A stretch of 64,000 nt of DNA from an uncultured Clostridia bacterium (GCA_934183325.1 CAKPSH010000005.1:7749-71748), one strand, 5' to 3'; shown: positions 19,549 through 42,717, counted from the stretch's first letter. A program made the numbers and translations. Notes: generated by a model not told the origin, from the letters alone.

Positions 19549-19588
19549 CACACACCTTTAGGTGTGTGCAGTTATTTTTTATATTCTT
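19549..19588 (+). terminator. Rho-independent terminator of the small-protein gene
   Basis: AACTGCACACACC-TTTA-GGTGTGTGCAGTT hairpin followed by ATTTTTT. Confidence 0.65.
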
Positions 19589-19695
19589 AGGAAAGTCATC
19601 TATGAAATAGTGAGTTTCCTTAGAATATAATTATGGAAGAATAACATTTTCTTATGTGCCTCTGGCACTTAGAAAATGTTATTCTTGTTTTTTAT
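19581..19695 (-). repeat. Dispersed intergenic repeat, long form (copy 1, inverted relative to the other copies)
   Basis: Reverse complement of the element at 26368/42593. Contains the GTGCC-UCU-GGCAC core inside long AAGAAUAACAUUUUCU/AGAAAAUGUUAUUCUU arms. Abuts the ogg stop codon. Confidence 0.9.
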
Positions 19696-20552
19696 GCTTC
19701 TCTTTTCCAATAAAATAAATATTGTTGTGCCAATCCTGCTAAATCTGAATACTTTTTCTTAGCTAACTTTTGTAATTCTTTTTTTGAAACTTTCTCCTCA
19801 TCAATATTATGTATATATAAATCATTCATTACTCTTCTTACCCATACATCAATTGGAAACACATCATATTTTTTTAATGAAAATAGCATAATACAATCTG
19901 CAACTTTTGGTCCAACTCCTGGCAATGTTAAAAGTCTTTCTCTTAATTTCTCTGTATTATTTTCACTTTTTAGTTCTTCAATTGTCATATCTCCTTTTAG
20001 AAACATTTGTGTAGTATCATATACTCTTTTATCTCTAAATCCAAGTCCTAAAGCTCTTAAATCTTCTACGCTTGCATTACTTAGTTCTTCTATTGTAGGG
20101 AATGTATAATATTCTTTATTTTTATATATAATCTTTTTTCCATAATTTCTTGATATTTTTTCAATAATCCCTTTTATTCTTGGAATATTATTATTGGCAG
20201 ATATAATAAATGAAATTATCATTTCCCATATATCTTGATTTAAAATTCTAATACCACTTCCATAATTAATACTTTCCTTTAAATAATCATCAATCATTGA
20301 TAACTCATTTTTTATCTTTTTATAATCAGTATTTAAGTCAAAATATTGTGTGCAAATCTTTTGAATATCTCCTTCACAGATTCCTTGGAATTTTACATCA
20401 TAATTTTCTTTTTTTACAGTTAAAATATTTTTTCCAAAAATTCCTGTATATGAATCATCTTCATTTTTATTCCACCTAAAGCATTGCCCACATTCAAAAA
20501 TATGTTTTGGTTCAAATGAATCTGCATTCTTTAATATGTATTCTTGTTCCAT
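19692..20552 (-). CDS. ogg: 8-oxoguanine DNA glycosylase / N-glycosylase-DNA lyase (HhH-GPD, Ogg-like)
   Basis: HhH-GPD signature LPGVGPKVADCIMLF with catalytic Lys/Asp spacing. Confidence 0.75.
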   Translation of the reverse strand: MEQEYILKNADSFEPKHIFECGQCFRWNKNEDDSYTGIFGKNILTVKKENYDVKFQGICEGDIQKICTQYFDLNTDYKKIKNELSMIDDYLKESINYGSGIRILNQDIWEMIISFIISANNNIPRIKGIIEKISRNYGKKIIYKNKEYYTFPTIEELSNASVEDLRALGLGFRDKRVYDTTQMFLKGDMTIEELKSENNTEKLRERLLTLPGVGPKVADCIMLFSLKKYDVFPIDVWVRRVMNDLYIHNIDEEKVSKKELQKLAKKKYSDLAGLAQQYLFYWKREA

Positions 20553-20566
20553 ATTAATATTCCTTT

Positions 20567-21463
20567 CTATATTAATGTTGCTCCTATGATACCAGCGTCA
20601 TTTTCAAATTGTGCCATTACAATTTCTGGTATCTCTCTATTAAATGTTTTTGCACTTTTTAGCTTTTGTTCCACCTTATCTCCTAATATATCTGTGTGAT
20701 AAACATAGCTTCCACCTATGCATATTGCTTCTGGTTCAAAGATATTTACAATATTTGTAATTCCTTCCACTAGGTTATTTGCATACTCTTCTAATATATC
20801 ATCTATTTTTTCTAATTCCCTCTTAGCTAATTCAAATATTATTTCTCCACTTAACTCCTTAGAAATTCCTAGTCTTTCTGTTATTTTATCTCTTAATCCT
20901 TTCATAGATGCATATGTTTCAAAACATCCCCTTCTACCACATGTGCATTGATTTCCATCTTTACAAATTAAAATATGCCCTATTTCCATTCCAGGATACT
21001 TTTTAGGTTTTAGCATTTTTCCATTAAGGAATACTGCTCCTCCTATTCCTGTTCCCAAACACATAAATACCGCATCACTATATTTTTTTAATGCTCCATA
21101 TTTTTTTTCGCATAGTCCCGCACATTTTGCATCATTTGCGAGTTTTATTGGTGCTGAAAAATACCTTGCTAATTTTTCTACTATATTGAGATTATATATT
21201 CCCAAATTTTCTGCCTTTACAATTACACCATCTTTATTTGAACCCGGACATGCTATTCCTATCATTTCAATATCTTTAATTTTCAAATCCTTTTCTTGTA
21301 ATATATTATTTATTGAAATAGCAATAGTTTCTTCTATGAATTTTTCTATATTTTTTTTATTGTCTGAACTTGTATTCTTTTCTTTTTTTAAAATTATATT
21401 TCCTTTATTGTCTACCAATCCTACTGCTATATGACTTCCTCCAATATCAATTCCTATTTTCAT
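20567..21463 (-). CDS. ROK-family sugar kinase (glucokinase-like)
   Basis: N-terminal GIDIGGS and the ROK zinc motif CTCGRRGCFE. Confidence 0.8.
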   Translation of the reverse strand: MKIGIDIGGSHIAVGLVDNKGNIILKKEKNTSSDNKKNIEKFIEETIAISINNILQEKDLKIKDIEMIGIACPGSNKDGVIVKAENLGIYNLNIVEKLARYFSAPIKLANDAKCAGLCEKKYGALKKYSDAVFMCLGTGIGGAVFLNGKMLKPKKYPGMEIGHILICKDGNQCTCGRRGCFETYASMKGLRDKITERLGISKELSGEIIFELAKRELEKIDDILEEYANNLVEGITNIVNIFEPEAICIGGSYVYHTDILGDKVEQKLKSAKTFNREIPEIVMAQFENDAGIIGATLI

Positions 21464-21559
21464 ATTTTATATAATAAGTCCTTTATTTTGACTTTTTCCT
21501 CCTTAATATTTAACACAAGGGCAGAGACCATATAATCTCTGCCCTTGTTTTTTCATAAA

Positions 21560-40593: not shown

Positions 40594-41136
40594 TTATTTA
40601 ACTATATTACTCAATACTTTTCCAACAATATGTACAATTTGGGTTGAATTTTTATTTGCTATAACTTTGCCATAAGCTTTTCCTCCGACAGTTAATGATG
40701 CAACTAACGCACTTATTAAATATTGTATAAAATAAGGCAATCCATAGTTTTCAGTCAACTTAACCGCAATTAAAGCACTGATTGATCCACTTAAAACTCC
40801 ACATACATCTCCAATAACATCTGCACAAATATTTGCAACAATTGCTGAATTCTTAATTAACTTTATTGATGTTTTTGAACCTTTTACTTTTTTGGTAGCC
40901 TTAGCATGAAATTCTGCTTCATCAGCTACTGTAACTGCAACACCAATAATATCTGTTAAAATTCCGACAAATATTACAGCAATTAAAATCAATATTGCAA
41001 AAAATATATTTAGGTTTGACATTCCATTAGTCGTTATATATGACATTACTAATGATAATGTAAAGGTTATAGCAAATGATTGAATAATCCATCTCGATTT
41101 AGGTTTTTCTTCATTTTTTTGCAATTCTTTATTCAC
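40594..41136 (-). CDS. Small (about 20 kDa) four-TM membrane protein; OapA-like by size and context (directly downstream of the candidate large ncRNA)
   Basis: Four hydrophobic helices. The in-frame GTG at 41134-41136 directly abuts AGGAGA, so the real start may be the TTG at 41122-41124. Confidence 0.55.
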   Translation of the reverse strand: MNKELQKNEEKPKSRWIIQSFAITFTLSLVMSYITTNGMSNLNIFFAILILIAVIFVGILTDIIGVAVTVADEAEFHAKATKKVKGSKTSIKLIKNSAIVANICADVIGDVCGVLSGSISALIAVKLTENYGLPYFIQYLISALVASLTVGGKAYGKVIANKNSTQIVHIVGKVLSNIVK

Positions 41137-41140
41137 TCTC

Positions 41141-41801
41141 CTATTTTTTATATCAATTAAGGCAGGAAATTAATCCTGCCTTTTATTTTAGATGGTAAAA
41201 ACCCAAGTAAATTTTACGGTTTAGGTCTAGTTGAATTTCTCTATTTTCTACATTACATTACTGTAAAGCCGTTTCCATTTAAAGAAAATATTTACTCTAA
41301 AAGTAAACACCAGATCGCCACTTAAGTCCGTACCTTAATCCTTAGATTCTCATGCGACTTAGCAAACATTCTAGAAGTTTTCCTTGGCATACTTTTCTTA
41401 TTACTAGTTTCTTTTGCAATCATAATTTCATAATTATAAGTAATTACTCCCAGTACTCTCACTCAAAACAGGCTACACTATGTATTTCGTGTCTTGGCAC
41501 TCAACATAGGTTATACTTAAAACATAACGTTAATTGTTTAAGTCTCAATCAAAATAGGGACTTTATATATGCCATTATATATTACCCCCACTTTTTTATT
41601 CTTCATATAAATACACAAAACTGGCATTTCGCGCAAATATACGAAGCTTCAACGGTGTGCCCTTTAGTGGATTTTTAGCCCCACCCTCATAATAAAAAGT
41701 ACGACTAGAATAATGCACCATCAAAAATTATTATAGCATATAAGATTTAAATTGTAAAGTGAATTATTTGTGAATTCTTATCAATCGTTCTTCATTATTC
41801 G
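41141..41801 (-). ncRNA. Candidate large structured non-coding RNA (OLE-like by size and context); hairpin terminator at its 3' end (41161-41180)
   Basis: About 600 nt between two co-oriented genes with no credible ORF. A GC-enriched core (41290-41700, roughly 40% vs 25% background) is typical of structured RNAs in AT-rich genomes. It ends in GGCAGGAAATTAATCCTGCC plus a T-run. Candidate only: no reference sequence was checked. Confidence 0.4.
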
Positions 41802-42503
41802 TCATTTTACTACATTATTGCTTTCTATGATTTTTTCTATGAATTGTACTAGTAAATTTTGACTCATATATTCTCTGAAATCTGGTATAAACCATAGTAT
41901 TCTAAAAACAATTAGTAATATCACTACTGTAATAATCAATATTTCCAAATCTTTTAATTTTTCTTTAAATGTTTTTTTATGATATACTTTATACCCATAA
42001 TCTTTCATTCTTCTTGTATATGCATCTCTATATGCCTTTTGTACAGTTTCATCAATTTTTCTTTCTGCCTCTTCTTCAATATTATGATAATACTTGTTTT
42101 CATTATATGTATTTGATCTATCAACTGTATTCCTATGATTGTTTTCTGTTGTTTTTGTATTACTTGTTTGTATATTATTAGATTGTGATTTTTGTTGTAG
42201 CTGTCTTTTTAAATACATATTTTCTTCATATAATTTTTTATACATATTTCTTACATTCTCAGTATCATTATTTATCTTATTTCTTTCTGTTTCCAATTGT
42301 TCATCATATTTAGTTCTTTTATCTTTATCAGATAAAATTTCATAAGCTTCATTTATTTCTTTAAATTTTTCCTCTGCCCATTTTTTCTTTTCTTCTGGAT
42401 TTGCATCAGGGTGGTACATTTTTGCTAATGTTCTATATACCTTATCTATTATTTCTTTAGAAGCTTTCTCATTTACTTGTAAAATTTCATAATAATTTTT
42501 CAT
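41802..42503 (-). CDS. J-domain (DnaJ-like) protein with C-terminal membrane anchor
   Basis: N-terminal J domain with HPD motif (YYEILQV...AKMYHPDAN...[11 protein letters not shown]); a charged middle region; C-terminal TM ([18 protein letters not shown]). Confidence 0.75.
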
Positions 42504-42592
42504 TTATTACTCCTTTTATAATATTATAGCATATTTAATAATTATAAACTATATTTCTTTTAATTTATATATTTAATCTGAGAATAATTTAT

Positions 42593-42717
42593 AAGATAAA
42601 AAACAAGAATAACATTTTCTAAGTGCCAGAGGCACATAAGAAAATTTAATTCTTCCATAATTATCTTCTAAGGAAACTCACTATTTCATAGATGACTTTC
42701 CTAAGAATATAAAAAAA
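42593..42717 (+). repeat. Dispersed intergenic repeat, long form (copy 5)
   Basis: Same 125-nt element as 26368-26492; immediately flanks the rplL terminator. Confidence 0.9.

Follow-up and report, generated by a model that had tools for sequence, protein, structure and literature searches.

What kind of DNA comes to lie, copy after copy, directly behind the transcription terminators of its host's genes? The question is raised by a 64-kb stretch from an uncultured human-gut Clostridia bacterium (hereafter the window, with positions counted from its first nucleotide), in which five copies of a short repeat, named W in this analysis, all sit behind gene 3' ends. We consider it likely that W is a small, noncoding, nonautonomous mobile DNA element of the bcr1/SPRITE type, mobilized in trans, devoid of terminal inverted repeats (TIRs), and targeting terminator tails. 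The window has a G+C content of ~26%, and the closest named relatives of its organism are metagenome-assembled genomes (MAGs) labeled "Clostridia bacterium." Proteins identical to its L7/L12, rubrerythrin, and HPF are found on ~90 to 130 human-gut metagenome contig sets, from the Hadza and other cohorts, and in one MAG.

Copies of W and the terminators they follow

One 22-mer and one 27-mer, taken from opposite ends of the repeat, were searched for as exact matches, with 100 dinucleotide-preserving shuffles as a control. Each matched the window at five sites (19.6, 26.4, 31.9, 32.2, and 42.6 kb) and the shuffles at none. The five copies are alike nearly base for base in alignment, and a covariance model built from the W family and run over the 64 kb recovered the same five, with no sixth full copy. 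The long form has a body of 105 nucleotides (nt) (c1, c2, and c5) and the short form one of 56 nt (c3 and c4).

Every copy is ordered as a left octamer TTTTTTAT, the body, and a right octamer TTTTTTAT. The left octamer is the tail of the host terminator's T-tract, and the body begins immediately 3' of it. Read on the strand of the upstream gene, the long body opens with ATTCTTAGGAAAG and the remainder of hairpin A (42 nt), passes through the linker GATAATTATGG into hairpin B (50 nt), and closes with a G; its 3' end reads ...GTTATTCTTG and is followed by TTTTTTAT. W is bounded by ATTCTTAGGAAAG... and ...GTTATTCTTGTTTTTTAT. These ends are direct rather than inverted (ATTCTTAG... and ...ATTCTTG), and none of the copies carries the TIRs that strictly define the miniature transposable elements with inverted repeats known as MITEs. 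The two hairpins, of 42 and 50 nt, are A+T-rich, lack GTAG at their feet, and are unlike each other. Hairpin B has 16 + 5 pairs followed by G and TTTTTTAT, and is terminator-like on the gene strand. W was also considered as coding sequence, a reading we rejected: the sole ATG-initiated frame across hairpin B is stopped in c1.

The long copy c1 (19575 to 19695, plus strand) has its octamers at 19575 to 19582 and 19688 to 19695, its body at 19583 to 19687, hairpin A at 19584 to 19625, and hairpin B at 19637 to 19686. It follows the terminator hairpin (19539 to 19578, plus strand, -26 kcal/mol) of an open reading frame (ORF) of 67 amino acids (aa) at 19337 to 19540, the T-tract finishing in the left octamer; the ogg stop codon (19692 to 19694, minus strand) falls within the right octamer. 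The remaining copies are on the minus strand. Long copy c2 (26372 to 26492; left and right octamers 26485 to 26492 and 26372 to 26379, body 26380 to 26484, hairpin A 26442 to 26483, hairpin B 26381 to 26430) follows the terminator hairpin of comEC (gene at 26784 to 29081, hairpin at 26495 to 26518, both minus strand), which is supported by a terminator scan and by folding.

Short copy c3 (31929 to 32000; left octamer 31993 to 32000, body 31937 to 31992, right octamer 31929 to 31936) follows a hairpin found by the terminator scan (32001 to 32023, minus strand) behind a tRNA-Met(CAT) gene (32027 to 32102, minus strand) that carries, as read from the sequence, the initiator hallmarks C1-A72 and GGG/CCC. 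Short copy c4 (32207 to 32278; left octamer 32271 to 32278, body 32215 to 32270, right octamer 32207 to 32214) lies behind the A+T-rich terminator hairpin (32279 to 32320, minus strand, fold of ~-14 kcal/mol) of the rubrerythrin gene (32326 to 32865, minus strand). Long copy c5 (42596 to 42716; octamers 42709 to 42716 and 42596 to 42603, body 42604 to 42708, hairpin A 42666 to 42707, hairpin B 42605 to 42654) lies behind the rplL terminator hairpin identified by folding (42717 to 42745, minus strand; gene at 42749 to 43123, minus strand).

On the strand of the upstream gene, the order in all five copies is terminator hairpin, T-tract, W. The terminator scan supports the host hairpins of c1, c2, and c3, and folding supports all five (-8 to -27 kcal/mol). 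As c1 is inverted with respect to the other four and keeps the same order, the polarity follows the terminator and not the replication strand. The original prediction, made from the sequence alone, had described five near-identical copies in long and short forms, each with two hairpins and each beside a terminator hairpin in fixed polarity; all of this held, c1 included, with coordinates within ~8 nt of ours. Its naming of the host genes held in the main as well. The neighboring proteins are OGG, a GIDA-family protein of TrmFO size, ComEC, an SprT-like protein, a DnaJ-domain protein, rubrerythrin, and L7/L12, besides the initiator tRNA; the c2 hairpin, which had been given to comEC and trmFO together, terminates comEC only, trmFO being the next gene downstream.

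Filled sites, an empty site, and dispersal

The c2 locus is polymorphic, as a search of relatives for empty sites, suggested along with the original prediction, revealed. The window and six other strains are filled, and three independent assemblies (L055, L056, and L058), whose flanks are 98.8 to 99.4% identical to the window on both sides, are empty. The empty allele keeps one octamer and reads ...GGGAGGTAATTATTACCTCCTAA TTTTTTAT CTTCTTTTTTATTC... (the left flank is also given as CCTCCTAA). The filled allele is longer by exactly 113 nt, the sum of the 105-nt body and one octamer. W is mobile, or precisely excisable. The difference of 113 nt fits an insertion that duplicates 8 bp, an insertion immediately 3' of the octamer in which the element brings that octamer as its own end, or a precise excision. 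Elsewhere in the window no empty allele turned up. c1 is filled in 9 of 9 strains examined; at rplL all conspecific strains are filled, and the sister species, with a 421-aa gene there, allows no clean comparison; at the rubrerythrin/tRNA locus the strains are all filled, and two have a different downstream arrangement.

W is not confined to the window. An exact 20-mer that is invariant in the body matched 18 contigs in two gut metagenome assemblies. Five of these resample window sites. The other 13 add new ones, and the genes they follow include dnaJ, rplU, peptidase M16 genes, and one for a mechanosensitive channel. The sites known overall thus number at least 18, and dozens of copies per genome are plausible. 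In a collection of species-representative genomes, in which the window's species is absent, the 20-mer gave one chance match (in a Flavobacteriales MAG), with no element around it. There was no match among viral contigs in two scans and no BLAST match in a plasmid collection, and the only BLAST match in a phage collection was a marginal one inside a Vibrio phage terminase gene.

Sites were scored for an abutting hairpin (a fold of -8 kcal/mol or lower adjoining the T-tract), the controls being 20 other intergenic TTTTTTAT sites in the window. A hairpin was found at 12 of the 15 W sites with sufficient 5' flank, one of them being hairpin B of a preceding tandem copy, compared to 2 of the 20 controls (binomial P of ~3e-10). 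The association with terminators is real and polar. At one site (L013) a bidirectional terminator has one copy on each side, both in the order hairpin, T-tract, element. Several hairpin-plus-T-tract sites in the window carry no W, so occupancy is not saturating.

Many metagenome contigs, and the MAG contig L007, terminate inside or exactly at W, as is expected of a multicopy repeat. In two contigs of metagenome OLGZ01 (L009 and L026), the flank upstream of W comes from one copy and the downstream flank from another, in the arrangements rplL terminator/element/SprT flank and small-ORF terminator/element/DnaJ flank. L026 is the expected product of an inversion between c1 and c5, and chimeric assembly across the repeat may also account for both contigs; the W of L009 is in a 91-nt form not seen elsewhere. 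A short-form copy in L015 (3461 to 3574) is enclosed by a long inverted repeat with two arms of 26 nt (AATTCAGTTTAATTTTATTTCTTTTT and AAAAAGAAATAAAATTAAACTGAATT) and appears to sit within rather than behind a large hairpin.

The short form is the long form minus the 49 nt between two CTTAGAA repeats. The deletion takes away the linker along with hairpin B's 5' arm and apex and leaves the 3' arm without a partner, and this leftover arm shows that the short form derives from the long one. The form varies among strains at a locus: c5, long in the window, is short in L003 and L006, and c3 is long in three strains (L028, L031, and L032) and short in five. At c4 it is short in 8 of 8 strains examined. 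The short c3 allele of L033 carries the GTTATATATG variant common to long alleles, which indicates that the 49-nt deletion occurred more than once. Changes within the hairpins are seen too. In a Hadza strain, hairpin B at the c5/rplL locus (L001, 3480 to 3531) has been replaced in situ by its exact reverse complement. The inversion spans 20 nt between inverted arms of 16 nt; it has turned the loop and internal loop and left the arms unchanged, probably through a template switch in replication. Arm variants TTAAA and TAACA alternate among strains at one locus. Hairpin flips and exchange of arm variants are the changes that template switching typically produces in quasi-palindromes.

Both hairpins are maintained by compensatory changes in diverged relatives, and the ends and linker are conserved in sequence. 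In an alignment that was fitted to the model, is low in diversity, and is biased toward the model's own structure, 96% of cells are paired, compared to ~50% with the partner slid. Six pairs have changed on both sides, a count reached in none of 500 shuffles. The fold z-scores are -7.6 and -8.1 (the latter for the antisense strand), so that both strands stand far above shuffles. The gene-sense strand is 1 to 11 kcal/mol more stable than the antisense in every copy tested. Wobble (G·U) changes, at 10 columns in sense and 7 in antisense, do not discriminate between the strands as carriers of the structure.

How W may move, and what else it might be

We propose that a protein encoded elsewhere in the genome mobilizes W through its conserved ends. 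Its target would be a hairpin followed by TTTTTTAT, a geometry that terminators share with the 3' end of W itself (hairpin B, G, TTTTTTAT). In L022 two copies stand in tandem with one octamer shared between them, and their junction has the same geometry. Such a target would account for the homing to terminators, the fixed polarity, the octamer-sharing head-to-tail tandem, and the repeated hits on the same terminators. After insertion, the gene would retain its terminator, and hairpin B with the regenerated T-tract would make a second terminator-like structure; the insertion would thereby be insulated from the next gene and insulating for it. Insertion of W is probably nearly neutral, and this insulation is the simplest reason that such sites tolerate it. 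A putative use by the host, as a backup terminator or 3' structure, would be secondary.

The second octamer may be an 8-bp target duplication, or it may be W's own end, with insertion taking place 3' of the target as in single-strand HUH transposition. A site at which the same variant octamer, TTATTTAT, stands on both sides (L017) favors target duplication. A single-strand HUH-type enzyme suits the missing TIRs and the single octamer at the empty site, whereas an enzyme that duplicates 8 bp suits L017 better.

Several observations weigh against a mobile element that targets terminator tails. Three of the 15 scored sites (L013, L017, and L023) have no adjoining hairpin, and selection against insertions elsewhere, instead of targeting, could contribute to the association. 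Only one clean empty site was obtained. The empty c2 allele could as well have arisen by precise deletion between the direct repeats, whose length there is 14 nt. A second octamer preceded by CTTC lies just downstream of c2 (26360 to 26372 in the window; L057, 5719 to 5735) and is present in empty alleles also, which retain TTTTTTAT-CTTC-TTTTTTAT (ATTCTTG in L057). An older element at the comEC terminator has probably left this stump. Every conspecific strain examined carries a copy at the other four window loci, so insertions there are old. The left and right octamers differ by one base at L020 and L013, and 136-nt relatives of W lack a second octamer, so the target duplication is a putative one. 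Finally, no transposase or autonomous partner was found among the window genes, which are housekeeping only (28 window ORFs were searched against Pfam, and the others were covered by Pfam entries in gene tables), and no transposase or other autonomous partner was evident in the metagenome contigs, where long ORFs were read by eye only.

A specific version of the proposal, which we think rather unlikely as it stands, makes W a palindrome-associated single-strand HUH element related to IS200/IS605 or REP/RAYT. A Y1 transposase would bind the end hairpins in single-stranded DNA, make its cuts 3' of TTTTTTAT, one at the left flank and one at the right end, and reinsert the element 3' of another TTTTTTAT without duplication. 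The direct ends with one hairpin each and no TIRs, the exactly one octamer remaining at the empty site, the strict orientation relative to an asymmetric target, and the tandem pair with its shared octamer are all in keeping with this. The cut site 9 nt past hairpin B resembles right ends of IS608, whose cut geometry is comparable. On the other side of the element the match is poorer: the left hairpin starts 1 nt after the target and that of IS608 ~19 nt from it. Moreover, hairpins A and B are dissimilar, whereas IS200/IS605 ends usually carry similar ones; the variant octamer repeated at L017 fits duplication better; c1 lies on the replication strand opposite to that of c2 to c5; and no Y1 transposase, RAYT, or TnpA gene was seen in the 64-kb window.

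It is also conceivable, though we hold it to be improbable, that W serves the host as an RNA or terminator module, a second terminator or 3' stabilizer selected behind highly expressed genes (rplL, initiator tRNA, and rubrerythrin), with mobility incidental. The resemblance of hairpin B, G, and TTTTTTAT to an intrinsic terminator on the gene strand points this way, as do the compensatory changes that have kept the hairpins across subfamilies, the better fold of the sense strand in every copy tested, and the fixation of four window loci in all conspecific strains examined. Such a role sits poorly with the short form, which lacks the hairpin beside the T-tract and is nevertheless fixed at c4 and frequent at c3 and c5. 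The c2 copy is dispensable in three strains, the wobble changes show no clear preference for the sense strand (10 columns compared to 7), related species have unrelated palindromes or nothing at the same terminator, and every host gene already possesses its own terminator.

The original prediction had named, among other candidates, a multicopy small-RNA gene, which would run antisense to the flanking genes and end at a shared bidirectional terminator. We now regard this as highly improbable, even though the antisense strand also folds well (z = -8.1) and gives a weak, subthreshold LhrC-like match. An Rfam scan of the window, which had been suggested at the time, placed W at no family's gathering threshold, permissive E-values giving chance-level matches only; LhrC (RF00616), the best, scored 28.2 bits compared to a gathering score of 110, and its E-value would be ~4 for the whole window. 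Nothing is conserved upstream of W in either direction, so there is no shared promoter and no conserved sequence before a putative start; the flanks differ at every copy, and promoter-like matches in the region are at chance level (118, with 103 expected). The shared bidirectional terminator held in part: T-runs read on both sides of the hairpin make three of the five host terminators look bidirectional, and the other two make poor terminators when read antisense. W shows hallmarks of mobile DNA: presence/absence polymorphism, repeated octamers, copies in tandem, and relics.

Least probable is descent from a class C (IIC) group II intron, W being a degenerate derivative that has no ORF and is mobilized in trans by an intron-encoded reverse transcriptase: the niche and polarity are the same, directly after terminators in the upstream gene's orientation (PMC4424553), but the 105-nt body is too small for the ribozyme domains, begins with AUUCUU rather than a GUGYG 5' end, and includes no good match to domain V in hairpin A on inspection, and Rfam gave no group II intron match in the window. 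Two recombination-site readings were likewise rejected. The resemblance to dif/Xer motifs is partial and limited to half-sites, and the genes concerned are housekeeping genes; for an integron attC site, too, only half-sites match, and the neighbors are housekeeping genes rather than cassettes.

Known repeats, relatives, and other features of the window

W is a new family of a known but poorly understood kind of bacterial repeat, and its sharply defined homing to terminator tails is its most interesting property. Closest in behavior are bcr1-type repeats, the pneumococcal SPRITE, and, for target choice only, class C group II introns. The group A repeat bcr1 of the Bacillus cereus group is a noncoding Firmicute repeat of ~100 to 155 nt with many copies, two independent stem-loops, flanking TTTAT direct repeats, and a strain-variable distribution; its transposase is not known, and a mechanism like site-specific recombination has been suggested (PMC3184786, PMC6542083). 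W is likewise noncoding, multicopy, and variable among strains, with two independent stem-loops, A and B (as in PMC3184786), and its flanking TTTTTTAT ends in TTTAT on both sides (the TTTAT described in PMC6542083). The likeness is one of description, and W differs from bcr1 in host clade and in the length of its direct repeat (8 nt compared to 5). Because the host is an uncultured gut Clostridia lineage, membership of the bcr1 family in the narrow sense is unlikely. To our knowledge, a strict position behind terminator hairpins is not part of the description of bcr1.

SPRITE is an A+T-rich pneumococcal repeat of ~105 nt in which a long duplex is followed by a U-rich tract, with simple A/T runs at its ends; it is strongly enriched near gene 3' ends, no matching insertion sequence (IS) is known, and it is thought to act as a terminator itself (PMC3049150). 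W, by description, shares the long duplex (hairpin B) followed by a U-rich tract, the A+T richness, the length of ~105 nt, the simple A/T-run ends, the lack of a known matching IS, and the location at gene 3' ends. However, the genes that carry W keep their own terminators, with W starting exactly at the end of the T-tract, and an empty site has been found for W, while neither an empty site nor a target duplication is known for SPRITE. Class C group II introns insert in the orientation of the upstream gene. They do so at intrinsic-terminator motifs (PMC4424553). W shares their insulated niche and polarity rule, a likeness of behavior and not of family membership, since these introns are ribozymes that measure from several hundred nt to ~2 kb and usually carry a reverse-transcriptase ORF, and W has 105 nt and no ribozyme features.

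REP/REPIN-RAYT and IS200/IS605-derived elements are, like W, extragenic, hairpin-forming, and without TIRs, and usually lie downstream of genes; they are moved in trans by a single-strand-specific enzyme and are orientation specific next to a short target. REPs are 20 to 40 nt long and G+C-rich with a conserved 5' GTAG, whereas the hairpins of W are larger, A+T-rich, without GTAG, and mutually unlike. Classical MITEs (RUP, Correia/NEMIS, and ERIC) are small, noncoding, multicopy, structured, bounded by direct repeats, and polymorphic among strains. W matches them in its size, noncoding nature, and copy number (bodies of 105 and 56 nt, five copies in 64 kb, at least 18 sites) but differs in its direct ends, as classical MITEs have TIRs matching an IS family and short TA-type or fixed duplications. 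The suggestion of a REP/BOX/RUP-like element or a MITE was thus right in so far as W is a dispersed, noncoding, hairpin-rich repeat, polymorphic among strains and bounded by an 8-nt direct repeat, and wrong for a classical MITE, given the lack of TIRs.

Relatives of W were found behind other terminators. E49, 73% identical to W, lies directly behind a different terminator in a strain whose identity to the window is 97% as far as the rubrerythrin stop codon and whose genes downstream differ. Its hairpins are rebuilt through compensatory changes around a conserved 5' end (ATTCTAGGAAAG), linker (TAGAAGATAAATATGG), and 3' end (AAAATCTTAATTCTGGTTTTTTAC). E59, from a sister species of ~90% nucleotide identity, occupies the same comEC-terminator octamer as c2 and has the 5'-hairpin core and the final 23 nt in common with W. 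The 136-nt relative is present as two copies in a more distant species (L7/L12 91% identical), directly behind terminator T-tracts ending in AT, and the genes they follow are a TrbC-like gene and rpoC; one of the 136-nt relatives is flanked by TTTAT on both sides. The window itself holds a decayed relic of the E59 type, missed earlier, at 5665 to 5700 (minus strand). It consists of the 5' hairpin only (ATATACGAGAAGAAAGTTATTTGAACTTTCTAGTAT), is 85% identical over 41 nt to the 5' module of E59 (left octamer plus 5' hairpin), and lies directly behind another terminator, GGACGC...GCGTCC (5709 to 5730) plus TAAATTTAT, of the upstream gene.

W, E49, E59, and the 136-nt form are a small superfamily that has repeatedly landed on terminators. 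It is possible, and we put it forward tentatively, that they form a clade-wide, DNA-only superfamily whose machinery reads a hairpin plus a T-tract ending in AT as its target and whose own 3' end mimics that target. If so, terminators in gut Clostridia would be serial landing pads for noncoding elements, and this would be an enzyme-driven, small-repeat counterpart of group IIC intron homing.

Small repeats of the bcr1/SPRITE type are common in Firmicutes, and how they move is almost unknown. W is a tractable case, with a clean pair of filled and empty alleles, a sharp 8-nt junction, strict polarity, and subfamilies that share only their ends, and, given a complete genome, the material is suited to inferring a recognition code and a candidate enzyme. 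Terminators are repeatedly hit hot spots in this abundant uncultured gut lineage, which bears on the evolution of 3' ends, on strain typing, and on read-through into downstream genes (trmFO and the tRNA-Met promoter region). W matters for assembly quality as well, as several contigs break at it and two look chimeric across copies. It opens no new category of biology.

Other arrangements were seen at the same gene ends in related genomes. Two strains (L048, 9990 to 10009; L049, 1689 to 6850) are 97 to 99% identical to the window up to the rubrerythrin stop codon, beyond which a different terminator, E49, rsmE, yicC, remA, rpoZ, and gmk stand in place of tRNA-Met and SprT, which puts the breakpoint of a rearrangement or recombination precisely at the 3' end of the rubrerythrin gene. 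In a related species with L7/L12 93% identical (L035, 2113 to 2250; L036, 10378 to 10682; and L037), a tandem duplication with a period of 98 nt, in two, three, or more copies, takes in the rplL terminator and a further 78 nt; the G+C-rich hairpin within each unit (GGGACAGG...CCTGTCCC) has no relationship to W. In another related species, palindromic units of ~33 nt make up a separate family, GAAACTTTTTT...AAAAAGTTTC (L038, 10410 to 10490, also at 4183, 5658, and 5697), with a 70-nt double unit directly behind the rplL terminator T-tract that is absent in L040, a strain with the same L7/L12 protein. In the sister species of ~90% nucleotide identity (L045, 7424 to 9052; and L046), the place of c5, between the rplL terminator and the DnaJ-domain gene, is taken by a gene for a 421-aa membrane-anchored protein with no Pfam match.

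Two structured RNAs were also found in the window. A full-length OLE (ornate large extremophilic) RNA, scoring 295 bits, lies at 41176 to 41737 (minus strand), with c5 ~860 nt upstream of it, and its occurrence in a human-gut Clostridia lineage of 26% G+C is worth recording. It is flanked by the DnaJ-domain gene (41802 to 42503) and by a 180-aa ORF without a Pfam match (40594 to 41136), which is possibly an OLE-associated protein. An L10 leader (RF00557) at 44090 to 44209 (minus strand) lies upstream of rplJ, as expected for an rplJL operon.

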